DNA of 46,433 nucleotides, taken from positions 1 to 46,433 of the forward strand of contig JAUVYS010000002.1 of NCBI GenBank assembly GCA_030602965.1, given 5' to 3'. Made by a program: the position numbers and the translations under genes. This DNA is from Candidatus Bathyarchaeota archaeon. Lineage in GTDB: Archaea; Thermoproteota; Bathyarchaeia; RBG-16-48-13; JAGMEO01. Within the stretch, counting starts at the first letter, position 1, and each line of letters opens with the position of its first letter. Below are positions 1-46,433 of this stretch, piece after piece. A model generated the notes under the pieces. That model did no database searches. It was not told where the DNA came from and saw only the letters and a program-made list of their open reading frames with translations.

Positions 1-1
1 C

Positions 2-47
2 AAAAAAAAAAAAAAAAATGGTCTAGTCCTTTTTTAGCTTAAGACCA
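2..47 (-). terminator. oligo-T tract (T17 on minus strand) preceded by a weak hairpin, downstream of the leftward genes
   Basis: A17 at 2-18 on the + strand. Inverted 6-mers TGGTCT (19-24) and AGACCA (42-47). Lies just past the last leftward ORF. Confidence 0.4.
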
Positions 48-53
48 GCCAAC

Positions 54-190
54 AAGCCGACCCAATAACCCAAAGCATAAGCCGACATAATAAACCAAAA
101 CAAACCAACACATAAGACGACAAACAAACTTTAACCGTCCATAATGTTAAGAGCTTCGTTTACATCTTCAATAGCCGACACAATAAATTC
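54..190. repeat. direct copies of an (A/T)AGCCGAC(A) motif; further copies at 1397, 1795, 1822 and inverted at 2521
   Basis: AAGCCGACCCAATAACC at 54, AAGCCGACATAATAAACC at 79, degenerate AAGACGACAAAC at 113, TAGCCGACACAATAAA at 172. Confidence 0.6.
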
Positions 191-313
191 TCTTAAACCC
201 GAGCCTTTTTCAGTAAAAATCTCAGCATTAACCAAACCACTTTTCGCAATTCCCAACCACTTTATTATCTGAGTCTGTTTCCACGCGGGCAACGGGTGAG
301 TTTCAAAAGCCAA
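131..313 (-). CDS. hypothetical protein (60 aa, TTG start)
   Basis: ORF preceded by the GAGAGG SD-like box and the bipartite upstream motif. Confidence 0.55.
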   Translation of the reverse strand: MAFETHPLPAWKQTQIIKWLGIAKSGLVNAEIFTEKGSGLREFIVSAIEDVNEALNIMDG

Positions 314-330
314 CTTAAAAACCTCTCTAA

Positions 331-350
331 CCTATACCTATACGTTTTGC
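331..350 (-). promoter_or_regulatory. bipartite upstream motif GCAAAAC-N7-TATAGG
   Basis: Minus-strand reading: GCAAAACGTATAGGTATAGG. It is followed by GAGAGG and the TTG start at 313. Confidence 0.55.
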
Positions 351-449
351 TTGATTCGGACAATCTTCAGGGATAAACGCTTTAATGTTTAAGCAGTATA
401 TACCACGATTATTTGAGCAACCTTTACAACTCAAAGTTTTTCACCTGTC

Positions 450-743
450 TTATCTTCTCCCTGAATAATGGAGGTTAGCCTGGGGGATCTCCCAAGTTCG
501 AGGTCGTAATCTGTTTATCTCAGCATCAACAAAATAGCCCCAAACTTCAACACTTCCCTGAATGAAACCAAACCATTTTTTCCCCTTAAGAACTCCATCG
601 GGAAATTCATATTCTCCCTCTTCAACTATCTCAACGCCAAACCAAAACCAACCACTAAAAGATTCCCAACCTTTCAAAACCTCTTTGTCGTCTATAAAGA
701 GCTTAGTCTTATCGCCCACTTCCCGACTTTCAAACCGTGCCAT
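450..743 (-). CDS. hypothetical protein (97 aa)
   Basis: ATG start with GGTGAG SD 5 nt upstream, plus the upstream motif. Confidence 0.7.
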   Translation of the reverse strand: MARFESREVGDKTKLFIDDKEVLKGWESFSGWFWFGVEIVEEGEYEFPDGVLKGKKWFGFIQGSVEVWGYFVDAEINRLRPRTWEIPQANLHYSGRR

Positions 744-756
744 ATTCTCACCTTAA

Positions 757-776
757 CCTATACTGGAAGGTTTTGC
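757..776 (-). promoter_or_regulatory. bipartite upstream motif GCAAAAC-N7-TATAGG
   Basis: Minus-strand reading: GCAAAACCTTCCAGTATAGG, then TTAAGGTGAGAATATG. The motif abuts the TAA stop of the upstream gene. Confidence 0.6.
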
Positions 777-1160
777 TTAGATCTTTTCTACGTCTTGACC
801 TAAAAGTTTCGCAAAGGCTTCGGCTGTTTGGTGGTCGTTTACTCCTTCAAGAGTCTTAAAAGCTATCTCTCGCGCTTCGCTAATACTGTATTTGATAGCT
901 CTACCGATTACCTCAGTTAAGGCATTATGAAGAGCGGTCTTTTTCTGTTCCTCTTTTGACATCTCAAAGTCTTTCTGAAGTATGCGGTACTTCAAATATT
1001 CCCGATTATGACGAATCAAGGGTTCAAGAGATTCAATAACCAACTGAATGTTTAATTCATATTTCTTACTTTCTTCATACCTCTTCCTCTCATGCTCGTT
1101 GATAAAATCCTGTTCTTCTTCGGTGTAACTCATTTCAATCAACCTCTTCATTTTCATCAT
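777..1160 (-). CDS. hypothetical protein (127 aa, helical and charged)
   Basis: Long ORF on the dominant strand, overlapping the upstream gene end. Confidence 0.7.
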   Translation of the reverse strand: MMKMKRLIEMSYTEEEQDFINEHERKRYEESKKYELNIQLVIESLEPLIRHNREYLKYRILQKDFEMSKEEQKKTALHNALTEVIGRAIKYSISEAREIAFKTLEGVNDHQTAEAFAKLLGQDVEKI

Positions 1161-1353
1161 CCCAAATAATGTAATCTACTCTACTGAATGGCATAAATAT
1201 TTTATTTCCATTCTCAAGAATAGCTTTTACATATAACTGTTGAAAAATCGTGTGTGCGGTGATTTGAATCTGTGCATGGCTATCTATAGTATCAGTCACT
1301 AATCTACCTGACCCCTCTTTATTTGACATGTTTTCACGAAAATATTTATTCAT
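1135..1353 (-). CDS. hypothetical protein (72 aa from the ATG at 1353; track start 1368 is TTG)
   Basis: The ATG at 1353 lies 9 nt after GAGGTC and downstream of the motif. Confidence 0.6.
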   Translation of the reverse strand: MNKYFRENMSNKEGSGRLVTDTIDSHAQIQITAHTIFQQLYVKAILENGNKIFMPFSRVDYIIWDDENEEVD

Positions 1354-1368
1354 ATTTCTTGACCTCAA

Positions 1369-1388
1369 TCTATAAACTGAGGTTTTGC
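1369..1388 (-). promoter_or_regulatory. bipartite upstream motif GCAAAAC-N7-TATAGA
   Basis: Minus-strand reading: GCAAAACCTCAGTTTATAGA, then TTGAGGTCAAGAAATATG. Confidence 0.6.
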
Positions 1389-1495
1389 GTTAACATTAGC
1401 CGACAAAAAAAAGATATATGAAATATACGCAAAAATGGATCCGAAAAGATGATAAATGAATCGTACATCAAAGACAAAAAAAAAGAGGGAGGCAG

Positions 1496-2476
1496 TTAAG
1501 CCTTTATCAAGTCGCTGAGTTTCTTCAGCTTTCCAGACTTCACCCGTTCCTTAAGCCAACCAAGACCTTTATCAACCGCTTCTTTTTTGTCGTCTATCAA
1601 TAAGCAAGCTCCTGAGATCGTGCTTAGTTTCTGTTTAGTGTGGTCTGTCTGTCCCTTCGGAGTCTTCCTGAACTCTCCATGTCCAGCGATCCAACTGGAA
1701 GCCATAGCCAAACCCCAAAGCGTCTTCGGTTCATCTTTGAAACGATCAAAAACCGTCTTGATTGTCTTCTTACCTAACCCATAGCTTAAGCCCATAGCCG
1801 ACATAATAACCCTCATTTCTTTAGCCGACACACTAACTTTTCTCGATTGTTTTACACGGTTAAATACGCTGTGCTGATTGTCTTCTGCTCGTTTGATTGC
1901 TTCTTTCAATCTCGGTTCAAGTTCTCGAAGGCGTTCAATCCTTAACACCCGTTCAAAGTTTCCAGTGTTCAATCCGAACCTTTGAAGCCCTGACACATTC
2001 AACCAGGAGAGAGGATTAAAACACAACTCTACACGAATGAAAGATCCTATTCTTATGGCGTTTCGTGTGGTGATAGTTCCCCCGTTGATCTGGAAGCCCA
2101 CCTTCAAACCTGCAACTTCTCTGATAAAATCTACTTTCCCGTACATCCCTTCAACATCCAACAAAGGAACGCCTATGATCTTCTCTGCTGTTTGATACAC
2201 AACTTCGGGAGGGATCAACAAATGCTTCTGTGTGGCTACTGCCCTAACTTTCCCGTCTATTACGATAAACTGCAAAGGCTTCGAGTTAGGCGTGTGGTTT
2301 TCATCAAAGAACCCTAAACCCTTCCTTTTAATCTCTGCATCTATCTTACGCCCATGCACAAGTCTAAGATAAGACCATTTCGCACGTTTCCTCCAAACTG
2401 GAAGATCCGCCTGTGTGCCGTCTTCTAACTCTACAACACTCGGAGATTGTAAAGTTCCAACTAAAATCTGCTCCAT
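1496..2476 (-). CDS. hypothetical protein (326 aa), possibly DUF932-like phage/plasmid protein
   Basis: Long ORF. The segment GFQINGGTITTRNAIRIGSFIRVELCFNPL recalls the DUF932 core pattern (recalled from memory, not searched). Confidence 0.6.
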   Translation of the reverse strand: MEQILVGTLQSPSVVELEDGTQADLPVWRKRAKWSYLRLVHGRKIDAEIKRKGLGFFDENHTPNSKPLQFIVIDGKVRAVATQKHLLIPPEVVYQTAEKIIGVPLLDVEGMYGKVDFIREVAGLKVGFQINGGTITTRNAIRIGSFIRVELCFNPLSWLNVSGLQRFGLNTGNFERVLRIERLRELEPRLKEAIKRAEDNQHSVFNRVKQSRKVSVSAKEMRVIMSAMGLSYGLGKKTIKTVFDRFKDEPKTLWGLAMASSWIAGHGEFRKTPKGQTDHTKQKLSTISGACLLIDDKKEAVDKGLGWLKERVKSGKLKKLSDLIKA

Positions 2477-2490
2477 TATTTCACTCTCAC

Positions 2491-2510
2491 CCTATAAGTA
2501 AGGATTTTGC
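2491..2510 (-). promoter_or_regulatory. bipartite upstream motif GCAAAAT-N7-TATAGG
   Basis: Minus-strand reading: GCAAAATCCTTACTTATAGG, then GTGAGAGTGAAATAATG. The motif abuts the TAG stop of the upstream gene. Confidence 0.6.
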
Positions 2511-2807
2511 CTAATTTGTTTGTCGGCTTCTGTTTTTCCATCTCTTATGTATTTCTTTTCGAGTATGCTCAATGCAAAGCCTCCATATATCGCATAAACT
2601 CCCTTTAGAGACAATTTCTTGTTTTTGACATTTTTTACAAGCAATTATGAATCCACTTTTCATATCCTTGAGTACCCCACCCGTTTCAAGAATAACTATT
2701 CCACCTTTATTTTCATAGATTTCTTCAACAAGAAAGAAACTTTTTCCCTTCTCTTCATGGATCTTCATTAATTCTTTCTTTTCCAAAAAATTTTCTACGT
2801 AAGCCAT
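2511..2807 (-). CDS. hypothetical protein with a CxxC pair (98 aa from MAYVENF)
   Basis: The ATG at 2807 overlaps the upstream stop (TAATG coupling). The track start at 2837 would overlap the upstream ORF. Confidence 0.6.
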   Translation of the reverse strand: MAYVENFLEKKELMKIHEEKGKSFFLVEEIYENKGGIVILETGGVLKDMKSGFIIACKKCQKQEIVSKGSLCDIWRLCIEHTRKEIHKRWKNRSRQTN

Positions 2808-2977
2808 TATTTCGCTTCTCCTTCTTTCTCCATACATTCTTTACATATCGGGTAAGATTCCCCGTGACCTTGACAATGAAACCAGTCCTTATCTTCAACC
2901 ATATCAGAAGTCAAGTCTTTACCACAATTAAAACAGTCACCCCAAACCTGTAAGAGTTTATCTATGTCGTCTATCAT
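2807..2977 (-). CDS. zinc-finger mini-protein (56 aa, MIDDIDKLLQVWGDCFNCGK...CKEC), absent from the ORF track
   Basis: ATGA overlap with the upstream gene and TAATG overlap with the downstream gene. Two CxxC pairs. Paralog of 3156..3350 (shared IDDIDKLL). Confidence 0.6.
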   Translation of the reverse strand: MIDDIDKLLQVWGDCFNCGKDLTSDMVEDKDWFHCQGHGESYPICKECMEKEGEAK

Positions 2978-3159
2978 TTCTCAACTTTCCCGTCTAATCT
3001 GAAGCTCCTACATTTCAATACATCTTTAAGGTATTGACGATTAGGCTGTTCTATTGAATGTTGTTCAATCTCTAAATAGTACCCGTATTTCATCTGACAG
3101 TTTCGACATCTCTCTGAAGAAAAACCACTATTCCAAACATGACCGCTTGCTTCTATCAT
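2974..3159 (-). CDS. zinc-binding mini-protein (61 aa)
   Basis: Contains a CxxC motif and is coupled to both neighbours by 4-nt overlaps. Confidence 0.6.
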   Translation of the reverse strand: MIEASGHVWNSGFSSERCRNCQMKYGYYLEIEQHSIEQPNRQYLKDVLKCRSFRLDGKVEK

Positions 3160-3350
3160 TTCGCTTCCTCAAAACAATCTGGACATAATCGATTATAATG
3201 AAGAGGTAAATCATTTCTTCCACATTTTTTACAGGGAACATTCAAAATATCCTCCTTCAAGAGTTTATCTATGTCGTCTATAATCTTAGCTCTCTCAACA
3301 TAACCGTCAAGAGTCTTTCCCTTGAAGAGATCCTTAAGTTTCTCGTTCAT
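3156..3350 (-). CDS. zinc-ribbon mini-protein (64 aa)
   Basis: CKKCG...CPDC motifs. Shares a 23-nt identical stretch with 2807..2977. Confidence 0.65.
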   Translation of the reverse strand: MNEKLKDLFKGKTLDGYVERAKIIDDIDKLLKEDILNVPCKKCGRNDLPLHYNRLCPDCFEEAK

Positions 3351-3590
3351 CTTTATTCCTCATACGTCTTATTTTTCCTTTGTACCGATAAGAACGTGGA
3401 CATCTTTTCATAGTCTAGTCCTCAATCTAAGCAGGTCTTTGAATTCTCCTTATTTCGTATCCCCAAGACTTTTCAAGCAAGAGATATTTACCTTTGAAGT
3501 GTTCCCGTTTCTGTATGGTTTCAAAAAGATCCTTTAATAAACCAATAGCGTTCAATCATTCTCCCTCAATAAAGAAAAGGAGGGTTTTGC

Positions 3591-4016
3591 TTATCCTTGT
3601 TTATAGATCCATTGTTTAAGACGACATAGATACTGTTTGTCTTGCAGTTGTAAGATTGCTTCATGGTCTTCTATAAAATCAGAGTTGTCTGGATAGAATC
3701 GTTTCAATAGATGAAAATAGATTCTTGTCCACATACGATCTAAGGGAGCATCCATACTTGCTGTTGCGATATACGTTAATGCTTCATAATCGGTGGCTTC
3801 CGTTATTTTCTCCCCTTTACTATTCTTGATTTGTTTTAATCGTTCCATTTGGATTCGAGTCTTTTGTTCCTCAGTTATCATAGCTGACCATCCTCTATGA
3901 CCAATGATAGTTCTCGGCTTCGAGAGAAGTTCAGCTAACATATCAAATATCCGTAAACCTTGTTCTCTCTGTTTAACTGTGCCTTCACCGAAAAGCAGTT
4001 TTTGTTCTTTCGTCAT
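3591..4016 (-). CDS. hypothetical protein (141 aa)
   Basis: ORF with the upstream motif. Its stop is directly followed by GCAAAAC. Confidence 0.65.
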   Translation of the reverse strand: MTKEQKLLFGEGTVKQREQGLRIFDMLAELLSKPRTIIGHRGWSAMITEEQKTRIQMERLKQIKNSKGEKITEATDYEALTYIATASMDAPLDRMWTRIYFHLLKRFYPDNSDFIEDHEAILQLQDKQYLCRLKQWIYKQG

Positions 4017-4026
4017 GGTATCTCAA

Positions 4027-4046
4027 TCTTTACTCTGTCGTTTTGC
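4027..4046 (-). promoter_or_regulatory. bipartite upstream motif (GCAAAAC-N7-TAAAGA variant)
   Basis: Minus-strand reading: GCAAAACGACAGAGTAAAGA, then TTGAGATACCATG. Confidence 0.5.
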
Positions 4047-4142
4047 TTAGAAAATTCTAAAGCTCCGCATAAAGCATCATTGCTTAAACTATTCAAGTAA
4101 CCAAGAAGGAGTCTTCTTCGGCATTAGTACCATCATCACCCC

Positions 4143-4586
4143 CTAAAAGAAGTTAGATAGAGATTTTTGATCTCCTTGTTGTCCAAATAATTCTCTAGTT
4201 TTCTTCTTGAATATTTTAATCAAAGCGTTATTGATCTCTATTGGAATATTGACTATGACTTCCCCTTCACAATTTAAACAATTAGTGAGATAAGCGGTTC
4301 GGTCTTTTTCAGGATCAAAACAGAAACTATTCGAGTTGTATGTATCACATATTGGACATTTAACATTAGTCCATGCTATTTGTGTTGAGAGGATTCCAAA
4401 ATTCTCATCTTTAAACTCTATACAGGGTGTTACTTTTCCCTTCCCATCCATAAACACAACTTCTTCTGTCGTCTTCTCTTCTATTGAGGGTTTCCAGTCT
4501 TCCCGTACTTTATCAAAGGTTTCTCCAAGAGTAGCCATTTCCATTTGACGCGCAAGTTCAATAGCATCATCAGCCGGTTGGCGCAA
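4143..4586 (-). CDS. zinc-ribbon protein (147 aa; start uncertain, TTG at 4586 or an internal ATG)
   Basis: CPICD...CLNCEG motifs on the dominant strand. Confidence 0.6.
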   Translation of the reverse strand: MRQPADDAIELARQMEMATLGETFDKVREDWKPSIEEKTTEEVVFMDGKGKVTPCIEFKDENFGILSTQIAWTNVKCPICDTYNSNSFCFDPEKDRTAYLTNCLNCEGEVIVNIPIEINNALIKIFKKKTRELFGQQGDQKSLSNFF

Positions 4587-4601
4587 ACAACATCATCTCT
4601 A

Positions 4602-4622
4602 CTTTAAACATAGAGATTTTGC
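4602..4622 (-). promoter_or_regulatory. bipartite upstream motif, degenerate (GCAAAAT-N7-TTTAAAG)
   Basis: Minus-strand reading: GCAAAATCTCTATGTTTAAAG, then TAGAGATG. Confidence 0.4.
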
Positions 4623-4631
4623 GTAGATTTC

Positions 4632-4880
4632 TCAATCTTTCTTCATGACCTCAGCTTTCATCTCTTCAAATTTTTTGGAATAAGATTTTTTCAGATCCAA
4701 ATATTTCATTAAACGATTTGATTCATCCTGCACTCCTTCATGTATCAAAGATAGTAATGGACAAAATTGACTGAGAACTTCTCTTACCTTTGGCTTCACC
4801 TCTGGCACATAATTCTGAACCGCAAAACGTTTTTCTTGTTCACACTCATCCTTCACAGGACACAACTTACACTTCATCAT
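4632..4880 (-). CDS. Cys-containing hypothetical protein (82 aa)
   Basis: CKLCPVKDEC near the N-terminus. SD GAGGTTGAA precedes the ATG. Confidence 0.65.
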   Translation of the reverse strand: MMKCKLCPVKDECEQEKRFAVQNYVPEVKPKVREVLSQFCPLLSLIHEGVQDESNRLMKYLDLKKSYSKKFEEMKAEVMKKD

Positions 4881-4891
4881 TTCAACCTCAA

Positions 4892-4911
4892 TCTATACAA
4901 AAAGTTTTTGC
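4892..4911 (-). promoter_or_regulatory. bipartite upstream motif GCAAAAA-N7-TATAGA
   Basis: Minus-strand reading: GCAAAAACTTTTTGTATAGA, then TTGAGGTTGAAATG. Confidence 0.6.
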
Positions 4912-4915
4912 GTGA

Positions 4916-5287
4916 CTATTCACCCAACAAAAAAATAATATCTTTAATAAGTGATCTTGAAACTTTCACATGATCCTCTGGTGGCAGACATTTTGAGCAT
5001 CCTTTTCCTTTACACACATTACATGATTCATGTAAAAAACCTTCAAGATATTTCTGTAATTGTCTTTTTCTTTCTTTCATATAAGAGGGATTCTTTCTAA
5101 CGGAAACAGATGATATTACTTGTTCAAAGTCTTCCTTCTTAACTGAACCTAAAGGTGTGAGATTAGTATCTTCACCTGACGATTCTAGTAGGGATACACT
5201 GTATGTATCAGGGCTAGTCTTATCCCAAATAAACATCAAAGTCTTATCAGAACCTAATTCCAACTCAAACATTTTCTTCTCAGTCAT
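4916..5287 (-). CDS. hypothetical protein with a DnaJ-type CxxCxGxG zinc motif (123 aa)
   Basis: C-terminal CNVCKGKGCSKC. Confidence 0.65.
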   Translation of the reverse strand: MTEKKMFELELGSDKTLMFIWDKTSPDTYSVSLLESSGEDTNLTPLGSVKKEDFEQVISSVSVRKNPSYMKERKRQLQKYLEGFLHESCNVCKGKGCSKCLPPEDHVKVSRSLIKDIIFLLGE

Positions 5288-5296
5288 TATCTACAC

Positions 5297-5512
5297 CTAA
5301 CGCGTAAAGATTTTATCATAGAATAAAATAATAAAAAAAAACCCGATTACAAGAATTCCAATAAATAATATTACACCGATGATAATCCAACTTATTAGAA
5401 ATATCCAAAGAGGTATTTTATATCCAACAAGCAAATAAGCTGCTATACATGCCGCTACAAAAGCAACATAACCAAATGCTAATATGAGCATGAAAGCCGA
5501 TATTTTATCCAT
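5297..5512 (-). CDS. small integral membrane protein (71 aa, 2-3 TM)
   Basis: Almost entirely hydrophobic sequence. Confidence 0.65.
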   Translation of the reverse strand: MDKISAFMLILAFGYVAFVAACIAAYLLVGYKIPLWIFLISWIIIGVILFIGILVIGFFFIILFYDKIFTR

Positions 5513-5515
5513 TTT

Positions 5516-5863
5516 TTATTTGTCCTGGGCATTTTCTTCCCTTAACATTTTTTGAATTGTTTCAGCTAATTCCTTATATTTATCATTGTACACCTTAATT
5601 TCCCATTTCCACCCGTGCAGTCCTGCTACTTCACGTTCTATCGTCATGATCCCATGCCATTTATCACGCCAACCAAAAGGAGTATATTTTCGTAAAAAAT
5701 GTCCTTCTTTTGGATGAATAACTATCCACGGCGCATCGACACATGAATACAATTCGGCGATCAGATTTCCAGGTAATACTCTCTGTACCTTCTCTTTTAC
5801 CTCTTTTATGGTTAGAACCTTTTTGGGTTTAACAATTTCAATCGAAACATCAACCATACTCAA
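5516..5863 (-). CDS. hypothetical protein (115 aa)
   Basis: ORF on the dominant strand, tightly packed with its neighbours. Confidence 0.65.
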   Translation of the reverse strand: MSMVDVSIEIVKPKKVLTIKEVKEKVQRVLPGNLIAELYSCVDAPWIVIHPKEGHFLRKYTPFGWRDKWHGIMTIEREVAGLHGWKWEIKVYNDKYKELAETIQKMLREENAQDK

Positions 5864-5902
5864 TCATCCTCTTCTCTATCAACTGTGCTTCATTACTCTT
5901 CA

Positions 5903-6151
5903 TTACTCTGTAAGAGTTTTAGGGGTAGCACGTACTAGAAAAACATCGTCTTTGAGGATACCACTAATCTTTTTTCCGTGAAAAAGCACTTTCACCACTG
6001 TTTCCCCGTCACAGATTCGCACGTCTCGATCAACATCAATAATGATTTCTCTGAGATCCGGCTTCCAACCAAGAGCTTTCATTTCCTGTGGGCTAACTTT
6101 TGGTTTAAATCTAATCCACAAATTCTTATCATCTCGCATTTCAAGATACAA
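5903..6151 (-). CDS. hypothetical protein (82 aa, TTG start)
   Basis: GGTGAG lies 5 nt upstream of the TTG, with the upstream motif beyond it. Confidence 0.6.
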   Translation of the reverse strand: MYLEMRDDKNLWIRFKPKVSPQEMKALGWKPDLREIIIDVDRDVRICDGETVVKVLFHGKKISGILKDDVFLVRATPKTLTE

Positions 6152-6164
6152 TTCAACTCACCTA

Positions 6165-6185
6165 CTTTATACTCAGAAGTTTTGC
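6165..6185 (-). promoter_or_regulatory. bipartite upstream motif GCAAAAC-N7-TATAAAG
   Basis: Minus-strand reading: GCAAAACTTCTGAGTATAAAG, then TAGGTGAG. Confidence 0.55.
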
Positions 6186-6383
6186 TTAAAAATGACCTGG
6201 AGGAGGATATTTACCAAAAAATTCTATTAATTCTTCTACAAACTTGTCAATACGTTTCTTAATTTTCTTCTTGATCGTTTTGAGCTTCATCTTTCTATTC
6301 ATCTTCGGACAAACCAAAAAACCGCGAATAAACCCGAAGAAATCAATCCATCAACCTGAACTCCCATAGTTATAAACTCCTCA

Positions 6384-6404
6384 TATTATACTGTTAATTT
6401 TTGC
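6384..6404 (-). promoter_or_regulatory. bipartite upstream motif GCAAAAA-N7-TATAATA
   Basis: Minus-strand reading: GCAAAAATTAACAGTATAATA, then TGAGGAG and the ATG at 6367 of a short ORF. Confidence 0.5.
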
Positions 6405-6411
6405 CTAAAAG

Positions 6412-6419
6412 TTTAAAGG
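6412..6419 (+). promoter_or_regulatory. classical archaeal-type TATA box (AAAAG-TTTAAAGG) for the rightward gene
   Basis: TTTAAAGG ends 31 nt before the ATG at 6451. It is divergent from the leftward motif. Confidence 0.45.
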
Positions 6420-6450
6420 AACGGAACACATATCTTTTTTGTGGTTAAAC

Positions 6451-6735
6451 ATGGTTTTTCTTTATGAAGATTATAAACCACAACAAATCAAATCTCCTAT
6501 TTCAGATACGAGAATAGGGAGAGAACGAATAAAAAACAATCAGATAACTGGAGAAGTTCCCTATCATCCTCCTTTCCGTCCTGTTGGTCCACACTCAGTA
6601 ATAGAGGAAATCGGCGGCGGTGTCGACAGTAAACACCGTCTTGGAAGAACTCAATATTGGCCTACAGAACATAAAAGCCCGGGTATAGTTGACAGTCAAT
6701 GGTATCCTTGGCAGACAACAATTGAAGAAGTTTGA
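6451..6735 (+). CDS. hypothetical protein carrying the N-terminal MVFLYE tag (94 aa)
   Basis: Starts MVFLYEDYKPQ. The ATG at 6451 fits the TATA spacing better than the track start at 6439. Confidence 0.65.
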   Translation: MVFLYEDYKPQQIKSPISDTRIGRERIKNNQITGEVPYHPPFRPVGPHSVIEEIGGGVDSKHRLGRTQYWPTEHKSPGIVDSQWYPWQTTIEEV

Positions 6736-6795
6736 TACACACCAACTAGAAATATTTAAAAAGAAATATTGAATAATAAAAAAAGATGATATAAA

Positions 6796-7326
6796 ATGGT
6801 AGATTCAATAATCAGTATTATGATACGAGATCCAGTACATCCTTGTGGGCCTTACGACCGCACAGGACACTCATTTCGAGTAGATATTTTTAATTGTGAC
6901 TTCACCCCCCTTTTTTATAAGGGTATAACCTACAACAATTTCCCGCTTAACGTAAAGGGAAAGAAAGGAGGTTCCATACATAGACAAATCAGAGTTCCTC
7001 CCGGTTTTTATTTGATTCGTGGTCATGCCAGATGCCATAATGTTGTTACAGAGTGGGCTATGGTTCAGGTAGGATGCGGCACAACAGTATGCGTAAACTT
7101 GTTGCCTACATCAATCCATTACTGCCTATTGAGAACCGTAGGAGCCATATTAGCCACTGATCAAGTGAAAAAAATTTACGCTAAAGAAGCAGACGAAGTA
7201 GTTCGAGCAATCAATAAACTACTAAAAAGAATGCCTAGAACCTTGATGCCTGCACCACCTACAGCCAAACAACTCGAAGAACTAGAAAACGAAGAGAAAG
7301 AAGAGGAGAAAAAAGAAGCTAGCTAA
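6796..7326 (+). CDS. Cys-rich hypothetical protein with an E/K-rich tail (176 aa)
   Basis: ORF with TATTTAAA 35 nt upstream and a hairpin plus T5 after the stop. Confidence 0.65.
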   Translation: MVDSIISIMIRDPVHPCGPYDRTGHSFRVDIFNCDFTPLFYKGITYNNFPLNVKGKKGGSIHRQIRVPPGFYLIRGHARCHNVVTEWAMVQVGCGTTVCVNLLPTSIHYCLLRTVGAILATDQVKKIYAKEADEVVRAINKLLKRMPRTLMPAPPTAKQLEELENEEKEEEKKEAS

Positions 7327-7345
7327 GTAGCTAGCTACCCTTTTT
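7318..7345. terminator. hairpin plus T-run between convergent genes
   Basis: GCTAGCTA/TAGCTAGC palindrome at 7318-7335, followed by TACCCTTTTT. Confidence 0.5.
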
Positions 7346-7367
7346 ATTCTTAGATTTAAGAACCTAC

Positions 7368-8234
7368 TTAAACTTTGAATATGCCTGTATCAACCCATTC
7401 ATGTTTTATGATCGTCCACCAATCGATTGCTAAACCTGTTAAAACATACTCGTAAGGTAACCATCCATAACCGTTATCACCCCAACCCGTACCCCAAGAA
7501 TTTCTGATGAGTAACGCTCCAACAGTATTTTTTCTGCAAATATTATTCTTAATCTGCCTATCATTGTTGTATCCAACAGCCACCACAGCATGACCTCCAA
7601 GAATCCTTTCTCCACGACATGGATAAGGAATCTTCCCATCTCCTGCTGCTTGTCTGATTGAACTGTAAACTGTAAATCCGAACATGGATGGCAGGCCAGC
7701 CGCTAAATTCGTTTTGATTCGAGCTAACAAAATGTCTTTAGGTGTAAGTGAAGGATCTAACCTCACATACTTAAGTGGTTGATAATTTTGTGCAAAAGAA
7801 TAACAAAACGCGGAAGGCTCATCATCAAATTTACTGATGACATACGGCATATATTCCTCCGGAGGAACACCGAATAATCTCATTGCTCCCATAGTTGTAC
7901 GGAGGTATGCTCCAGTGTCTCCAGTCCAATGAAGCAATTTCCGTGTTACCTTGTAAAGGAAGAGTCTGGATGCATCAATATGTCTTCCAAAAGCCTTCCG
8001 TTCATAATATTCAACTAAAGATATACCAGCGTTTGCTGTGCAGGAACCGAGGGCACCTTGATCCTCAATCGGTGGACACCACGCACGGAGATCCACAGCA
8101 GTTGGAAGACCAACTTTTAAAGGCTCAACAATCCCCATTGTTTCTATCATAGATTTAACTTTTTCATGTTCCAGTGTGTAATCTCTAAAATCAGGTAAAT
8201 CAGGAAGCCATCCCATACTTCTTACTTCACTCAT
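7368..8234 (-). CDS. papain-family (C1A) cysteine peptidase
   Basis: QGALGSC (catalytic Cys), GGHAVVAVGY (His) and NSWGTGWGDNGYGW (Asn-Ser-Trp) appear in the canonical order. Confidence 0.88.
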   Translation of the reverse strand: MSEVRSMGWLPDLPDFRDYTLEHEKVKSMIETMGIVEPLKVGLPTAVDLRAWCPPIEDQGALGSCTANAGISLVEYYERKAFGRHIDASRLFLYKVTRKLLHWTGDTGAYLRTTMGAMRLFGVPPEEYMPYVISKFDDEPSAFCYSFAQNYQPLKYVRLDPSLTPKDILLARIKTNLAAGLPSMFGFTVYSSIRQAAGDGKIPYPCRGERILGGHAVVAVGYNNDRQIKNNICRKNTVGALLIRNSWGTGWGDNGYGWLPYEYVLTGLAIDWWTIIKHEWVDTGIFKV

Positions 8235-8301
8235 CTTTTCAACCTCACTAAAAATTATCTATTATCAATTTAAATTTTGTGTGTCCTCGCGTTTCCGTGA
8301 G

Positions 8302-8496
8302 TTATTTTTTAAAGACGACGATTCTTATTACTTGAGCCAAGATCATAAAGGCAACCGCGAACCCAGCTACGATAACAATTATGATTAAACTACCACTCGT
8401 TGATTCCCATACGTCCGTAACAGGAATAACTGCAATAATTAGGTTTAAGAAGAGAAATATGAATCCCATTACTAACAAGATCTTAGACAGCTTCAT
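8302..8496 (-). CDS. small membrane protein (64 aa from MKLSKILL, 2 TM)
   Basis: Two hydrophobic helices. The ATG at 8496 avoids overlap with the upstream gene. Confidence 0.55.
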   Translation of the reverse strand: MKLSKILLVMGFIFLFLNLIIAVIPVTDVWESTSGSLIIIVIVAGFAVAFMILAQVIRIVVFKK

Positions 8497-8510
8497 TTGA
8501 CGCGCGATAC

Positions 8511-9026: not shown

Positions 9027-9090
9027 AATTACTATTTAGTTTTTAAATTAATAAGAGTTTGCAGATACCTATGCTAATACGCGAGAATCT

Positions 9091-9276
9091 TCATCGGATA
9101 CTTGTTTCTCTTCGCCAATCATAATACCATCCATAGAAAGTTTCTCTCTCCAAAAAATCAAGTATTAAGTATTTTCGTAAATAAATACAATAAAACTTCA
9201 CAAGTTGCCTCTTAACTTTGTAAGGAAAATCTTTTGGGAATTGCCCTTTTGTATTAATCATTTCAGTCTCGCTCAT
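9091..9276 (-). CDS. hypothetical protein (61 aa)
   Basis: ORF on the dominant strand. Confidence 0.5.
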   Translation of the reverse strand: MSETEMINTKGQFPKDFPYKVKRQLVKFYCIYLRKYLILDFLERETFYGWYYDWRRETSIR

Positions 9277-9512
9277 GGTCTCATAGAGCTTCCTTCGTAT
9301 TAATCAAGTTATACGCGTATGAATTCTGGATCTGGATTTGTGCTTCCTAAATTATTTATGTAAGATTTAACGTCTGAGGGCTATAGGTGTTGAGGTTGAA
9401 TGAAACTCAGATTGATGCTTTGGATTTAACGATTGCTGCTTTGCGCTCTTACGAGAAACGAATGGGTGAACTTGTAGAAACATTCGCTGAATTGATTGTA
9501 GAAGTGACTCGC

Positions 9513-12721: not shown

Positions 12722-12737
12722 CCAATCACTTTCTAGC

Positions 12738-13153: not shown

Positions 13154-13163
13154 GAACCTTCAC

Positions 13164-37179: not shown

Positions 37180-38520
37180 TCAATCCGAATCTACCCATTC
37201 CTTCATGAATTCTTCAGTAAACTCTTCTTTCGCGCGCGGTGTTTTTCTCTGTGTTAATCGTTCTCCAGAAGGTTTCTTAATAATTAAAGCTCCACTTTTT
37301 TGTAATCGATAATAACTCTCCTCCACTTCACCAGGAGCTAAATTCAACTTACGCGCTGCAACTCCTGTGTCTATTTCAGCAGCACCGTCTTCTATCTGTT
37401 TAAGAACATAATTGAGAACTCGTTTATCAACTACACCATCTGTAACTTGTTTAGACGGTGTTTCTTCACGTCTTCTCCCTTCTCGGGTTCTTCTTTCACG
37501 CGTTCTTTCTTCGCGTGTAGGTCGTGTTTCTTTAAAGGCTTTTACTGCTTCTTTACTCACTTCTCCAAAAGTGGATATTGCAACGGCTCTCCAATCGAGC
37601 ATTCCTCCTTCACCACCACTTTTAAATTTTTTACCGACTTCATCCATTTTATTTGTTATTGTAATTAAAGCATCCAATAAATCAGTTAATTTACTAGTTT
37701 CGGTCCCGCCTTCTTTACCAATAGTTTCTAATTTCGCTGTGACTCTACCTAGTTCCTCTCTTAATGGCTGGATTTCATCTTTGAATTCTGCTTTACGTTC
37801 CAGATCTTTTACTTTAGACTTTTCAACTTGTAACTCTGATTCTGGTGATGCTTGATAAACACCCTCCTCTTTATTTAGAATCATGTCTATTTGATTTCCC
37901 ATTTGATTCATTGTAACGATAAGAGGGTTGACGGCATCTTGTAATTCGTTTTTACCTTCAAGTCTCTCCAGTCTCTTCATCATATATTCCATTTCAGGAT
38001 TTTTACCGGGGTTTCCTCCTCCCATATCTCCCATTCCTCCTCCCATTAAGATACGCATAGCCATGACTTGTGGAAGAAATCTATCCATTATTTTCATAAA
38101 TTGGTCTTGTCCTTCTTTATTTAATTGTGGAATTTGCTTTAGAAGTTGATCTCCTACTTTAGCTGCGACAACAGCGTTTATAGTGTCTTTAGTTGCTTTT
38201 GATGAAGGCGTGTCAGGTAAAACACTTAAGGTTCGGTTTATCGCGTCTATTGTCGGCATTAACTGTTCTAGTTCACTGTATGGATTGAAACCCATGTCAG
38301 AGAATGTTTTAGTTAAGAGGATAGCGGCTTGTTTCTTGTTAGGAATTCCCATTTTTTCACAGTATAATTCGAGAAAAGTATCGAATTCCGGCCTGTCAAG
38401 AGGTGTCTTAATTGTAACTATCGGCGGTTCTTTTTTTAGTACAGGTTTTTCTTCTTCTATACTTTCAGTAAGTGTTTCTTCTTCTTGAATTCTTTCTTCT
38501 TGTGTTTCTAGCTCAGACAT
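37180..38520 (-). CDS. large hypothetical protein (446 aa): coiled-coil, Gly/Met-rich loop, C-terminal winged-helix-like segment
   Basis: MGGGMGDMGGGNPG loop, RERRTREGRRRE tract, and C-terminal VLNYVLKQIEDGAAEIDTGVAARKLNL. Confidence 0.65.
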   Translation of the reverse strand: MSELETQEERIQEEETLTESIEEEKPVLKKEPPIVTIKTPLDRPEFDTFLELYCEKMGIPNKKQAAILLTKTFSDMGFNPYSELEQLMPTIDAINRTLSVLPDTPSSKATKDTINAVVAAKVGDQLLKQIPQLNKEGQDQFMKIMDRFLPQVMAMRILMGGGMGDMGGGNPGKNPEMEYMMKRLERLEGKNELQDAVNPLIVTMNQMGNQIDMILNKEEGVYQASPESELQVEKSKVKDLERKAEFKDEIQPLREELGRVTAKLETIGKEGGTETSKLTDLLDALITITNKMDEVGKKFKSGGEGGMLDWRAVAISTFGEVSKEAVKAFKETRPTREERTRERRTREGRRREETPSKQVTDGVVDKRVLNYVLKQIEDGAAEIDTGVAARKLNLAPGEVEESYYRLQKSGALIIKKPSGERLTQRKTPRAKEEFTEEFMKEWVDSD

Positions 38521-42544: not shown

Positions 42545-42614
42545 TTATAAGGTGTAAGTTATAAGGTGCAAGGTATACGTGATAAGGTATCAGGTGTAAG
42601 GTATACGTGATAAC
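42545..42614 (+). repeat. five tandem 14-bp iterons (centromere/operator-like) abutting the parA start
   Basis: TTATAAGGTGTAAG, TTATAAGGTGCAAG, GTATACGTGATAAG, GTATCAGGTGTAAG, GTATACGTGATAAC. Confidence 0.75.
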
Positions 42615-43362
42615 TATAGCTGTTACTAACCAGAAAGGAGGAACAGGAAAAACGACGTGTTCAGTGAATTTGGCTGCTGCCCTTGCCTTAGCAGGAAAAA
42701 AAACTTTGCTTTTAGACCTTGATCCTCAAAGCCACTCAACAATCAGCCTTGGAATTGAAAAGAATAGTTTTACCGCGTCAATGTATGATGTTTTGATTGG
42801 GAATATAAGTTTACCTTCAACTCTCTTAAAGACTGAGATTAACGGATTGTTTGTTGGACCTGCTGACATAAATTTAGCTGGAGTCGAATTTGAATTTGTT
42901 ACACGGCCTAACAGAGAAAACGTTTTGAAGAATGTTCTAACAAAAATTATTGATATTGACGTTTGTATCTTGGACACTCCGCCAAACTTGGGACTGTTAA
43001 CAATCAACAGTTTATGTGCATCTGATTATTTGATAATTCCCATAAGTGTGGGTTTCCTTCCCCTTGAAGGACTTAAACGATTACTGGACGTGGTTGAATT
43101 AGTGAAGGAGAGACTAGGCGCAAAAACGAAACTTTTAGGAACTGTCATAACGTTCTATGATGAAAGAACCAGACTGAGTAAAGAAAGCACTGAGGAGATC
43201 CAGAGGTTCTTCAAAGAAAAATGCTTTAAAACTGTGATTCATAGATGCGTGAAAATCGCGGAGGCTCCATCTCACGGAGAAACAATCTTCACTTACGCTT
43301 CAAAAAGTCGATCAGCCAAAGAATTTAAAGAATTAGGAAAAGAGGTATTGAAATATGTCTAA
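42607..43362 (+). CDS. parA: ParA/Soj-family partition ATPase (GTG start)
   Basis: ITIAVTNQKGGTGKTT deviant Walker A, LLLDLDPQ, and ILDTPP Walker B-like motif. Confidence 0.9.
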   Translation: MITIAVTNQKGGTGKTTCSVNLAAALALAGKKTLLLDLDPQSHSTISLGIEKNSFTASMYDVLIGNISLPSTLLKTEINGLFVGPADINLAGVEFEFVTRPNRENVLKNVLTKIIDIDVCILDTPPNLGLLTINSLCASDYLIIPISVGFLPLEGLKRLLDVVELVKERLGAKTKLLGTVITFYDERTRLSKESTEEIQRFFKEKCFKTVIHRCVKIAEAPSHGETIFTYASKSRSAKEFKELGKEVLKYV

Positions 43363-43624
43363 AAAAGCGTTAGGTAAAGGAATAGGATCAGGGCTTGATT
43401 CTGTCATACGTCCGGATCGCCAGATTGGAGTCGAGCAAAAGCGTGACATGCGCGCGATTAAAACCGTTAATCCACGAATCACCGTGTACTCTCCCGTAGC
43501 AGCCTCCGTTCTCACCCACCTAAAAAATACACAGCCTAACTTCAGCAAAAGTAAAATAGCCTGTGAAATCTTAGAAGAAGGCTTAAAAAAGCATTATCCT
43601 GAAATATGGATAAAGTTTGAATAG
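43355..43624 (+). CDS. small partition adaptor candidate (89 aa) with a ParB-like N-terminal peptide
   Basis: KKALGKGIGSGLDSVI resembles the ParB N-terminal LG(R/K)GL..L motif. The ORF overlaps the end of parA. SKSKIACEILEEGLKKH lies near the C-terminus. Confidence 0.6.
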   Translation: MSKKALGKGIGSGLDSVIRPDRQIGVEQKRDMRAIKTVNPRITVYSPVAASVLTHLKNTQPNFSKSKIACEILEEGLKKHYPEIWIKFE

Positions 43625-44331: not shown

Positions 44332-44394
44332 TCCTCCTTTACATTATGGGATCGATCATCCAGTTTTTTTGTACAAAAACAACAATAATTAGAA

Positions 44395-44580
44395 TTATCT
44401 GGAATTTTTTCGTCGTAAAATTCCAATAAATTTATCGATTATCTTATTAGTAAAGCTATATAGTTCATAATGTATTTTACAATAATACCATAACTCAACA
44501 CCTCTTTGGTCTTCAGTAGGCACAGAGATAGCTCCATACACTGATTCTCCACAGTTTTCAACACGACATTTTTTATTCAT
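44395..44580 (-). CDS. Cys/His-containing mini-protein (61 aa)
   Basis: CRVENCG...YYCKIH motifs. Confidence 0.5.
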   Translation of the reverse strand: MNKKCRVENCGESVYGAISVPTEDQRGVELWYYCKIHYELYSFTNKIIDKFIGILRRKNSR

Positions 44581-44749
44581 TTTTTTTCAATTCATCATTT
44601 AGTTTTTTTCTACAATACGCGCAATAATTAGAGTTATCTGAAATCTTTTCTCCACAGTAAGGACAAGGTATCAACGGTGTGAAATGTGCTTCGATTATTT
44701 GAGCTAGTGAAGGATTCTTATTTAATTTGGGTTTAAACTTTTTATTCAT
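44573..44749 (-). CDS. zinc-ribbon mini-protein (58 aa), absent from the ORF track
   Basis: CPYCGEKI...CAYC motifs. Overlaps the downstream start. Confidence 0.5.
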   Translation of the reverse strand: MNKKFKPKLNKNPSLAQIIEAHFTPLIPCPYCGEKISDNSNYCAYCRKKLNDELKKNE

Positions 44750-44755
44750 ATTTAT

Positions 44756-44938
44756 TCATCCGACTGGAAGTTGTCTTTTAATAGGATGATCCTTTTTTTG
44801 TTCAATCACTTCCCCTTCAAACTCTATTTCACATCCCCAAGATAGAGCCTCATTTAGATCTCCTGCACAACTGGGAAAATCATTACATCCAGAACCTTCA
44901 CATCTAACGACTCCTGTAAACTTCCATACCTTCCTCAT
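44756..44938 (-). CDS. Cys-rich mini-protein (60 aa)
   Basis: ORF in the chain, with several Cys residues. Confidence 0.45.
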   Translation of the reverse strand: MRKVWKFTGVVRCEGSGCNDFPSCAGDLNEALSWGCEIEFEGEVIEQKKDHPIKRQLPVG

Positions 44939-44958
44939 TTTTAATTCCTATTTGTTTA

Positions 44959-45168
44959 TTACTTTTCTGTGTCGTCTAGTTTCTTTTCTTTGGATAAAAT
45001 TAGATATACTACTGAGGCATAATCACGTAATGTTAAGGGCGTGACTGTTGGATGTCGAGAGAATGCTTCATTAAAAATGATGGGTATTGTAACTTCTGAT
45101 TTTATATCGCGCGCCCATTCAAGTAATGCCATTATACGTTCTTTTCTTATGTCAGCATAAGTAGGCAT
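44959..45168 (-). CDS. hypothetical protein (69 aa)
   Basis: ORF downstream of the RHH gene. Confidence 0.5.
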   Translation of the reverse strand: MPTYADIRKERIMALLEWARDIKSEVTIPIIFNEAFSRHPTVTPLTLRDYASVVYLILSKEKKLDDTEK

Positions 45169-45191
45169 AATTTCACTTCTAAATTAATGGA

Positions 45192-45362
45192 CTACTCCAC
45201 TCCTACAATTTCTCCTTGTTGTCTAGCCTGGAGATCTTCTAGTAATAGACGCATACCTGCTCGGATCGCTTCGGTTCTAGTTGCATAAGAGTCTTTTATT
45301 GCTTCATCAAATGATTCTACAAATTTTATAGGCAAAGTAATATGTATTTTCTTTCCATTCAT
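45192..45362 (-). CDS. ribbon-helix-helix (CopG-family) DNA-binding protein, 56 aa, absent from the ORF track
   Basis: MNGKKIHITLPIKFVESFDEAIKDSYATRTEAIRAGMRLLLEDL. GAGGT SD is present. Confidence 0.7.
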   Translation of the reverse strand: MNGKKIHITLPIKFVESFDEAIKDSYATRTEAIRAGMRLLLEDLQARQQGEIVGVE

Positions 45363-45374
45363 ATCATTACCTCT

Positions 45375-45401
45375 TTTTATGTATACTTTTATGTATATAA
45401 A
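45375..45401 (-). promoter_or_regulatory. TATA box (TTTATATA) overlapping two tandem 11-12-nt repeats; likely RHH promoter/operator
   Basis: TTTTATGTATA at 45375-45385 and 45387-45397. On the minus strand, TTTATATA lies 31 nt upstream of the ATG at 45362. Confidence 0.5.
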
Positions 45402-45409
45402 AAGTTTTT

Positions 45410-45509
45410 GATAGAGAAAGAGAATAAGAGAGGAAAAGACAGAGAAGGAGAGATAGGGAGAGAGAGGGAGAAGGAGAGAGAGAGGGAGAAGGAGAGAACA
45501 GAGAAAAAT
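45410..45509. repeat. polypurine/polypyrimidine (GA-rich) tract of about 100 nt with an 18-nt tandem repeat
   Basis: Pure purine run at 45455-45498. GAGGGAGAAGGAGAGA occurs twice with period 18. Confidence 0.85.
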
Positions 45510-45560
45510 ATAAATACTTATTTTATTACCCTAAGATCAAGCGCGTTTAGAAGTACGTAG

Positions 45561-46433
45561 ATCTGGGATATACGCCTATCTTCTAATCCAAGGACAGCTT
45601 GTTTTTCTCAGATCTACTGTACCGTTTTTTAAGTAATATTTAAAAAGGATCTCCTTTAGTACCTATTTCTTGGATTAGAAAATAGGTAATTGTGCTAACC
45701 GTTAGGAATAGAGAAACTTCCAACACGGTTGTCGATCAAGTAATTGATCAGTGATAACTTGCGGAATGAAACTCTGAGAAATAAATCAATTAGCGGGAAA
45801 CACCTTCTAGGGGCCTATGGATGGGCGACGGAGGCTGCCAACCTACTTTCGTTCTATATAAATGGGATGGGAAAACTGGTATATGAGAAGCTCAATGTTT
45901 CTGATTGACAGATCCAGGAACTACCGACCAACGGCAAGATTTGATACTAGCTGTCCCACACTGTGTAGAAGAAGGATAGAGGTTTAAGCTTACTTTCTGA
46001 TTCCCTGATAAGCCTGTACCCATGTCGATATGGGAAGAGGTGTTTATCAAGTGAAGCCTGGGATACGTGACATGTGTCTCCGCGATTTCGGTGACGGATC
46101 GGTGATAATAAGTCCATTGATGAAGTTCAATGATGTGGGCTTGTTGCTGGGAGGAAAGGGCTGAGATAGACGAGGGTGGGTGTATTCCCTAGTGTTAAGT
46201 CTAAATCATATATTACTTAAAACACAAAACATAAAAAAATTATGTTAGTATGTGTTTGGAGAATTCCAGTGGAAATGGAGGTTGGGGGTTTGGTATTTAA
46301 ATGTTTTGTTTGTTTGGGTAGGATCTACCCGGTAGGTTTGTACCCTACACAGCCCTTCCTGTCTAGGACGTTGAGGGGTTCGGTGTAAGTCTGGGTTTGG
46401 GTTTGGTAGGAGTTCTCAAAGACGGGCTTTGTG
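45561..46433. other. 870-nt ORF-free, GC-richer, inverted-repeat-containing region (candidate origin and/or large ncRNA)
   Basis: No ORF of 60 aa or more in any frame. 18/19-bp inverted repeat at 45575-45593 / 45669-45686. GATCAA-GTAA-TTGATC hairpin at 45733-45748. G/T-rich 3' end. Confidence 0.5.

Follow-up and report, generated by a model that had tools for sequence, protein, structure and literature searches.

Gene content and the search for hallmark genes

The stretch of DNA analysed here, hereafter called the window, is the entire contig C100 (46,433 bp) of a Bathyarchaeia metagenome-assembled genome (MAG) that comprises 1.44 Mb in 180 contigs with a completeness of 73.5%. Bathyarchaeia are among the most abundant archaea of sediments. 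The gene set was defined as 89 non-overlapping open reading frames (ORFs) of at least 50 amino acids (aa) each, about four fifths of which are carried by the minus strand. It includes a long operon encoding structural-type proteins, a ParA partition gene, a Gins51-like fusion gene and a set of probable cargo genes. No tRNA gene was found in the window, and a Pfam scan detected no housekeeping gene among its ORFs. The contig carries a self-contained element without hallmark genes.

A preliminary description, made by eye, had reported no gene for capsid, packaging, integration or DNA polymerisation, and profile scans bear this out. When the 89 ORFs were compared with Pfam (E≤0.01) and PHROGs (E≤0.001), no terminase, portal, HK97 or jelly-roll capsid, tyrosine or serine recombinase, DNA polymerase or helicase was matched; the same result was obtained for 73 of the 89 ORFs with NCBIfam (E≤0.01) and in looser scans of 22 ORFs against PHROGs (E≤1) and 18 against Pfam (E≤5). 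Profile searches of the hypothetical ORFs thus recovered no standard hallmark, and structure prediction covered two of the proteins. The sole row annotated as virion in PHROGs, tape measure phrog_4704 (E 1.1e-5, 25.4 bits) on the 446-aa ORF at 37180-38520, falls on a Met/Gly-rich charged stretch and was read as compositional.

ParA and an ABC transporter subunit had been named as the only P-loop ATPases. In agreement with this, a six-frame Walker A scan with the pattern [AG]xxxxGK[ST] gave one site in a long frame, that of the ABC subunit, and of the eight GK[ST] sites within the 89 ORFs only those of the ABC subunit and ParA lie in a P-loop context. An A32/HerA-type packaging ATPase was found in the contig as assembled neither by the Walker A scan nor by phmmer with the ATPase of G201:C14, a distantly related contig presented below, and no homolog of the G201:C14 ATPase was detected on other contigs of the MAG. 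The Caudoviricetes set of HK97 capsid, portal and large terminase gave no profile match and no third P-loop protein is available for a terminase. Regarding Adnaviria, the SIRV2-type alpha-helical capsid was not matched in Pfam or PHROGs at the profile level and no inverted terminal repeat was seen. Spindle-shaped (Fuselloviridae-like) viruses have a small capsid protein with two hydrophobic helices and usually an integrase and an AAA+ ATPase. The latter two were not found in the window with Pfam, PHROGs and the Walker A scan; a fully hydrophobic 71-aa ORF (5297-5512) and a 140-aa glycine-rich ORF are small hydrophobic candidates without a family match. Similarly, the Pfam, PHROGs and NCBIfam scans revealed no plasmid replication initiator, relaxase or conjugation ATPase, and no defence system was found, PADLOC returning two weak generic rows only.

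The GC content of the window (37.5%) equals the MAG mean, and its tetranucleotide profile correlates with r 0.98 with the 51 other MAG contigs of at least 8 kb. This identity of composition would suit a chromosomal genomic island of the MAG, either an integrated element or a glycan-related island, rather than an independent replicon, as would the integrase carried by the G201 relative. We consider such an island very improbable, because no integrase, tRNA or flanking housekeeping gene is present in 46 kb, because the element has a ParA partition module and because none of 400 other genomes of the class has its signature proteins.

The structural-type operon and the jelly-roll proteins

The operon runs from 27405 down to 17136 on the minus strand. 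It had been described earlier as structural in appearance, and this impression is upheld by the glycosidase, the carbohydrate-binding module (CBM)-type beta-sandwich, the jelly-roll protein and the several membrane proteins that it encodes. The best candidate for a capsid protein is the 182-aa product of the gene at 26422-26970, for which AlphaFold2 (21 sequences; pLDDT 91.9, pTM 0.87) predicted an N-terminal helix (residues 17-41) and, after it, a jelly roll of eight strands. A 171-aa paralog that shares 39% identity with it is encoded at 8511-9026, also on the minus strand. In fold comparisons, the top match of the 182-aa family was the capsid protein of Sulfolobus polyhedral virus 1 (SPV1), a match that lies within the noise range of the tool; Foldseek with the model gave nothing at E≤1e-3 in PDB or BFVD. 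Profile searches of PDB with alignments A6 and A7 yielded nothing below E 0.1, and the best E-value was 0.046 when all 21 members of alignment A7 were compared with PHROGs.

When 1.84 billion representatives were searched in full with HMMER, 19 homologs of the jelly-roll family emerged, of which 14 had E≤1e-10, and their clusters include members on contigs of up to 40,122, 44,659 and 50,665 bp. The family is found in none of the 400 other genomes of the same class; chromosomal homologs occur elsewhere in Thermoproteota and are considered below. In a maximum likelihood tree built from 27 full-length rows after exclusion of four rows shorter than 140 aa, the chromosomal sequences group in a single clade (100/100). 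The window paralogs belong to two different subgroups, each with metagenome members; the 8511-9026 protein is grouped with P0013, P0010 and P0015 in a distinct subgroup that is supported (100/95). This distribution fits two distinct roles for the paralogs. The recruitment of capsids from cellular jelly-roll proteins is an accepted scenario (PMC8812541).

The second protein family of interest is a 519-aa modular adhesin (19553-21112) that consists of a variable N-terminal part, a conserved CBM-type beta-sandwich (residues 249-410) and a swappable C-terminal domain. Seven metagenome homologs with 45-65% identity were aligned: the N-terminal part is variable or absent, the core is conserved and two alternative C-terminal domains are used. 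A homolog with 45% identity lies on L014 (JAHIRD010000192.1, 3.8 kb), which is binned in a 'Proteobacteria bacterium' MAG, probably by a binning error since other evidence for the adhesin family points to archaea. Downstream of the adhesin gene, a 280-aa beta-rich protein (18727-19569), lectin-like by eye only and without a family match in Pfam or PHROGs, precedes a glycoside hydrolase (17630-18676; PF11790, 28.7 bits for a cut-off of 21). In L010, the protein in the position of the 280-aa protein also precedes a glycosidase. The hydrophobic segments of the glycosidase lie at residues 285-327 and none is N-terminal, so that it is predicted to have a C-terminal membrane anchor and no signal peptide. 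The adhesin and the membrane-anchored glycosidase would recognise and cut host surface glycans during attachment.

Between the start of the operon and the adhesin gene, most products are small, membrane-associated or beta-rich. The first gene encodes a 140-aa glycine-rich protein with three hydrophobic segments (26983-27405), to which a 153-aa protein in L013 is similar by eye. The jelly-roll gene is followed by four ORFs (23992, 24427, 25096 and 25967; 23992-26368), three of which have C-terminal or internal membrane segments; ORF 25967 is weakly CARDB-like in Pfam (17.2 bits, below the cut-off of 22.7). A 214-aa protein (23326-23970) has a weak homolog in G201:C14 (blastp E 1e-4); a caspase-like reading of it, made by eye, was dropped as it found no Pfam or PDB sequence support. 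Two beta-rich ORFs of 136 and 179 aa (22299-23262) gave no family match in Pfam or PHROGs, looser scans included. Next come adjacent paralogs of 158 and 154 aa (21361-22311) that have their first 34 residues in common and then diverge. A word-based homolog search with the 158-aa paralog returned itself only and no family emerged from ESM Atlas (best score 0.88); in L009, an N-terminal motif resembling that of these paralogs precedes an adhesin homolog. Finally, a 91-aa protein (21105-21380) combines an acidic block with a lysine-rich one C-terminal to it, and one may speculate from its sequence that it condenses DNA. The gene order of a protein with an MVVIE-type N-terminus, the adhesin, the beta-rich protein and the glycosidase recurs in part in L010, L009 and G201:C14.

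Export signals are missing from the soluble products of the operon. The highest 10-residue hydropathy within the first 40 aa of the adhesin, the jelly rolls and the glycosidase does not exceed 1.84, compared to a maximum of 3.37 for the N-terminus of the ABC binding protein of the element; C-terminal anchors were seen in four operon proteins. Having no export signals, the operon proteins would therefore assemble in the cytoplasm, and membrane assembly inside the cell needs none. The C-terminally anchored membrane proteins, the jelly-roll pair (26422 and 8511) and the other beta-rich proteins might together build a membrane-containing particle.

Several of these proteins share a short N-terminal tag. 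In the 89 ORFs, the motif [VIL][FLVI]L[YF][EDP] was found five times, each time within the first 14 residues (ORFs 8511, 23992, 24427, 25967 and 6439), whereas shuffled proteins yielded on average 0.078 and at most 2 occurrences over 500 trials. As M-V-(F/L)-L-Y-(E/P), the tag is found at the gene starts 6439, 9026, 24291, 25047 and 26368, in ORFs that are otherwise unrelated; the 8511-9026 paralog thus starts with MVFLY and its metagenome homologs with MPIL(F/Y)E. In ORF 25096-26010, MPFLYD lies at an internal Met, residue 20. The tag may be a sorting, cleavage or (co-)assembly signal, a proposal that is directly testable for sorting and assembly.

Partition, replication, regulatory and cargo genes

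A 251-aa ParA ATPase (PF13614, 173 bits; phrog_164, E 7e-58) and an overlapping 89-aa gene are encoded on the plus strand at 42607-43624. Directly upstream of parA lie tandem 14-nt repeats (42546-42601; repeat family D12) of the type TATAAGGTGYAAGG, and ParA together with such upstream repeats has the make-up of a plasmid partition system. The repeats could form a centromere-like site and the 89-aa protein a putative centromere-binding adaptor, in which case these three components would partition the element as an episome.

Genes associated with replication and transcription that the preliminary description had not mentioned are a Gins51-like fusion, an RpoP-like zinc ribbon and two HNH endonucleases; no polymerase or helicase is among them. 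The fusion protein (539 aa; 13624-15243, plus strand) matches PF22090 (55.9 bits, residues 197-240) and PDB 3anw_A (E 7e-4, residues 127-240), so that a helical A domain and a Gins51 C-terminal domain are present over residues 127-240. Its Gins51-like part was matched in 328 of 401 genomes of the class, the nearest cellular piece being the C54 fragment of the MAG (54% identity over 70 aa; at best 40% in the 400 other genomes). By contrast, the 300-aa C-terminal extension is found only in relatives of the element and is absent from cellular Gins51. Five metagenome homologs of this C-terminal part share 39-49% identity with it, on contigs of up to 47,887 and 50,565 bp. One homolog of the fusion, the 812-aa protein P0048 on the 50,565-bp contig, contains an intein splicing domain (PF14890). 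Inside the gene, at 13900-14031, two alternative 132-nt Logan contigs differ at six positions and have depths of 9 and 5.2, which suggests that two strains of the element were present in the sample. We propose that the fusion, which is conserved in the relatives, recruits the host replisome for an element without a polymerase, helicase or initiator of its own. A full-text literature search found no paper describing a GINS subunit on a mobile element.

The RpoP/Rpb12-like zinc ribbon (54 aa; 12738-12902, minus strand; PF03604, 26.3 bits for a cut-off of 24) is an example of such a gene on a mobile element and adjoins the Gins51-like gene. A winged-helix DNA-binding protein of the HTH_45 or Sso10a-like type is encoded at 10148-10402 on the minus strand (PF14947, 45.7 bits; NF053610, 48.6 bits, below the cut-off of 60), and many small regulators and zinc ribbons are found at 2.8-11.4 kb and 44.4-45.4 kb. 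Together with the RpoP-like subunit, the small zinc-ribbon, winged-helix and ribbon-helix-helix proteins would re-programme host transcription. The HNH endonucleases, at 15667-16320 (plus strand) and 30506-31087 (minus strand), match phrog_12980 (E 8.3e-12) and phrog_2255 (E 9.1e-14) in PHROGs.

The largest ORF of the presumed early region encodes a 326-aa protein (1496-2476, minus strand). All 30 of its nearest ESM Atlas clusters carried PF06067 (score 0.97, 211-215 shared features), and no Pfam HMM matched it even at E≤5; its DUF932 identity, based on language-model features and not on an HMM, is therefore taken as a lead. DUF932 is a family frequent in phages and plasmids. A tblastn search of PLSDB plasmids with this ORF gave no match.

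A papain-family (C1) cysteine peptidase is encoded at 7368-8234 (minus strand; PF00112, E 6.3e-12, 46.5 bits for a cut-off of 20.7). Upstream of the operon, also on the minus strand, lie an ABC transporter (27523-30046) composed of a permease (PF00528), an NMT1-like binding protein with a signal or anchor segment (PF13379) and an ATPase (PF00005), then a 114-aa protein (30102-30446) that is 53% identical to a cytidylyltransferase-like protein of G201:C14 (PF01467 matches the G201 homolog and not the window protein), and a cluster at 31074-36571 that encodes, according to Pfam, an S-adenosylmethionine (SAM) methyltransferase, two GT2 and one GT4 glycosyltransferases and a glycerophosphotransferase-like protein. 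Profile searches gave two methyltransferases in the window in addition to the glycosyltransferase cluster. We infer that the ABC transporter and the glycosyltransferase/methyltransferase cluster are cargo.

Relatives and nature of the element

G201:C14, a distantly related contig of 66 kb, belongs to a different genome of the same class (L008, L006 and L007; contig positions 10001-66447). It has in common with the window the C-terminal domain of the adhesin, with 54% identity, as well as an HNH endonuclease and a cytidylyltransferase-like gene. Its 271-aa ATPase (L008:10262-11074) matches DUF87/HerA (24.0 bits, cut-off 23.2) and approaches Pox_A32 (21.9 bits, cut-off 22.8). It also encodes PCNA, ParB, UDG, an XPB-like helicase, a tyrosine integrase, a glycosyltransferase/methyltransferase cluster and a GHL10 glycosidase, and its paralogs of 214 and 194 aa may be capsid proteins. 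G201:C14 has the appearance of a jelly-roll-type virus or provirus of a more conventional kind; an integration beside a tRNA was envisaged and dropped, as no tRNA is present in 56 kb. As for closer relatives, homologs of three different signature proteins are found on contigs that group at 40-51 kb, suggestive of a genome size class; these contigs encode the proteins P0029, P0032, P0019, P0044 and P0048. A back-translated motif scan of metagenome contigs gave no match. Two pattern matches in IMG/VR encoded a relative, and this database appears to hold the window contig or a near-identical one.

The preliminary description had left a virus with an undescribed virion and a plasmid with a surface-structure operon side by side. 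Both alternatives survive and neither is proven, and several points favour a virus with an unusual virion. We hold, with a little less than even confidence, that the contig represents the complete or almost complete genome of an archaeal virus that persists as an episome and belongs to an undescribed, possibly portoglobovirus-like group, most likely with genomes of about 40-51 kb and hosts among sediment archaea. This reading is favoured because signal peptides, which proteins of the cell surface would require, are missing from the lectin-like, jelly-roll and glycosidase proteins, because SPV1-type viruses show a matching gene profile, because the adhesin C-terminal domain recurs in G201:C14, a contig with an FtsK/HerA/A32-like ATPase, because the signature-protein contigs cluster in size and because IMG/VR seems to hold the contig.

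A plasmid or another non-viral extrachromosomal element that forms no virion, and whose operon, glycosyltransferases and ABC transporter remodel or decorate the host envelope or build plasmid-carrying vesicles, is a less probable but substantial alternative. ParA with its upstream repeats, the ABC transporter and the glycosyltransferase cluster are typical plasmid or island cargo and as such count against a virus, and a plasmid would also account for the DUF932-like gene, for the failure of Pfam, PHROGs and NCBIfam to find a capsid or packaging gene, for the cellular members of the jelly-roll family and for the CBM folds, which are mostly cellular. However, a replication initiator, relaxase and conjugation ATPase are missing too, and the lack of signal peptides is difficult to reconcile with proteins destined for the cell surface. 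Moreover, the domain swapping of the adhesin is typical of receptor-binding proteins, its C-terminal domain is found on a contig with an A32/HerA-like ATPase, and two HNH endonucleases with dozens of tiny regulator genes make a virus-like content.

Among known viruses, the closest likeness is to SPV1, of the Portogloboviridae, a family characterised by capsid proteins of the VP4/VP10 type and a nucleoprotein VP1. The capsid proteins of SPV1 are single jelly rolls, its virion has an inner membrane, and its genome encodes one glycosyltransferase, one methyltransferase and no replication proteins that could be identified (PMC8459092); the virus lacks a packaging ATPase (PMC8812541). SPV1 and the window have in common the lack of a packaging ATPase and of an identifiable polymerase or replication initiator, small single-jelly-roll proteins (candidates only in the window), predicted membrane proteins, glycosyltransferase and methyltransferase genes and many small DNA-binding proteins (PMC8459092; PMC8812541). 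If the element packages its DNA as SPV1 does, the DNA would be condensed and not pumped by an ATPase. By contrast, portogloboviruses have a circular dsDNA of about 20 kb, compared with a contig of 46.4 kb, and infect hyperthermophilic Sulfolobales, compared with a sediment MAG; ParA, the Gins51 fusion, the ABC transporter and the CBM adhesin with its glycosidase distinguish the window from SPV1, whose mini-CRISPR array was not seen among the window repeats. There is no sequence similarity between the two, searches of PHROGs and of phage records being negative, and the fold match is within tool noise.

The described viruses of Bathyarchaeia, 'Fuxiviridae', 'Kunpengviridae', 'Chiyouviridae' and 'Huangdiviridae', are recognised by HK97, SIRV2-type or fusellovirus-type capsids, with a recognised capsid protein on 54 of 56 contigs (PMC10848311). 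They resemble the window in their presumed host class, in zinc-finger and winged-helix regulators and in glycosyltransferases, and Huangdivirus has a glycan-degrading enzyme thought to target the host envelope, comparable to the window glycosidase (PMC10848311). Their capsid types were not found in the window, nor was an integrase, terminase or AAA+ ATPase. Helvetiavirae and Varidnaviria, to which G201:C14 may belong, combine vertical double or paired single jelly-roll major capsid proteins with an FtsK/HerA/A32 ATPase; jelly-roll candidates and membrane proteins are points of likeness, whereas the window has no packaging ATPase of the kind that defines these viruses. In addition, no similarity was detectable between the jelly-roll or paralog pairs of G201:C14 and the window (probability ≤0.6% in profile-profile comparisons of the window paralog pairs with the G201 pair). 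Plasmid-prophages of the P1/N15 type are episomal viruses kept by ParA-type partition and not by integration; they are tailed phages with full hallmarks and their own replication initiators. The window shares ParA-type partition with them and differs in lacking full hallmark sets and initiators.

The ends of the contig conform to what was noted earlier, a C/A-rich left end and a G/T-rich right end without a true inverted repeat. The left end (1-150) begins with C and A17 at bases 1-18, followed by an A+C-rich stretch (73% A+C over 150 nt), and the right end (46284-46433) has 70% G+T over 150 nt. Alignment of the left 400 nt with the reverse-complemented right 400 nt scored 23, close to the 20.6 ± 2.5 of 300 shuffles, and no direct overlap of the ends was found (best score 20). 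Logan contigs of X1, the one DNA run that contains the element, a marine sediment metagenome according to its record and probably the source of the contig, likewise begin at base 2 of the window. In the Logan contigs that cover bases 1-20000, no circular joint was seen, and the depth falls from 13x to 6-10x across the left 3 kb; no RNA run is listed as containing the element, and two RNA runs of the same study had no Logan contigs on these 20000 bases.

The end of both assemblies at the A17 run, the drop in depth and the absence of a terminal repeat would be explained if the window were the truncated genome of a conventional membrane-containing jelly-roll virus (Varidnaviria-like), with its packaging ATPase and true capsid genes beyond the contig ends, and G201:C14, with 66 kb and an A32/HerA-like ATPase, also speaks for it. 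We judge this to be quite improbable, given that the contigs with homologs of three different signature proteins group at 40-51 kb like the window, that the G201 ATPase has a homolog on no other MAG contig, and that partition, regulation, replication-accessory and structural-type modules are already on the contig.

Several observations weigh against the viral reading. As neither terminal repeat nor circular joint was seen, the contig may be incomplete, and the gene for a packaging ATPase or a capsid could be on a part that is missing. Two of about 15 operon proteins were folded. The IMG/VR scans found no relative, and tblastn of GenBank phage records with three proteins gave no match. A crude k-mer scan detected no CRISPR array in the MAG, hence no spacer link to a host, and the host link consists of binning, composition and one 70-aa match. 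The jelly-roll family is chromosomal and single-copy in each of the 23 genomes examined from one Thermoproteota family, and two genomes of another family have it too. These chromosomal homologs are surrounded by housekeeping genes and must therefore have a cellular role somewhere, which could equally apply to the window protein. Examples are L026:9718-10236, L027:9890-10408, L028:9972-10505 and L029:9621-10163. They belong to no Pfam family. The 23 genomes have a GC content of 53-58%, and in three of them the homolog adjoins a 569-aa Lon_C-like protein.

A broader form of the viral reading combines these proposals. The window and the 40-51-kb contigs would form a new group, of family rank or higher, of membrane-containing archaeal viruses without packaging ATPase in mesophilic sediments; the jelly-roll pair would be a capsid of cellular origin, derived from a protein of Thermoproteota, with a distant kinship to portoglobovirus capsids, M-(V/P)-x-L-(Y/F)-(E/D) would be a virion tag, and a viral GINS would capture the host CMG helicase. 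Taken together, these claims are rather unlikely to hold all at once. If the jelly-roll pair is the capsid, the ATPase-less architecture of SPV1 extends from hot-spring Sulfolobales to cold sediments, and the pair is a second example, with living cellular homologs, of a capsid recruited from a cell protein. Since the described Bathyarchaeia viruses were all found via known capsid genes (PMC10848311), elements like the window are invisible to marker-based surveys.

Two further features of the DNA were observed. Repeated sequences of 30-50 nt, of the type ACCTCAATCTATA...TTTTGCG, occur at 752-781, 1362-1412, 4022-4051, 4885-4935 and 6161-6190; they adjoin the starts of several leftward small genes and are probably a common promoter or operator. 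Close to the right end, a purine-only, GA-rich tract of low complexity extends over about 95 nt (45414-45507).

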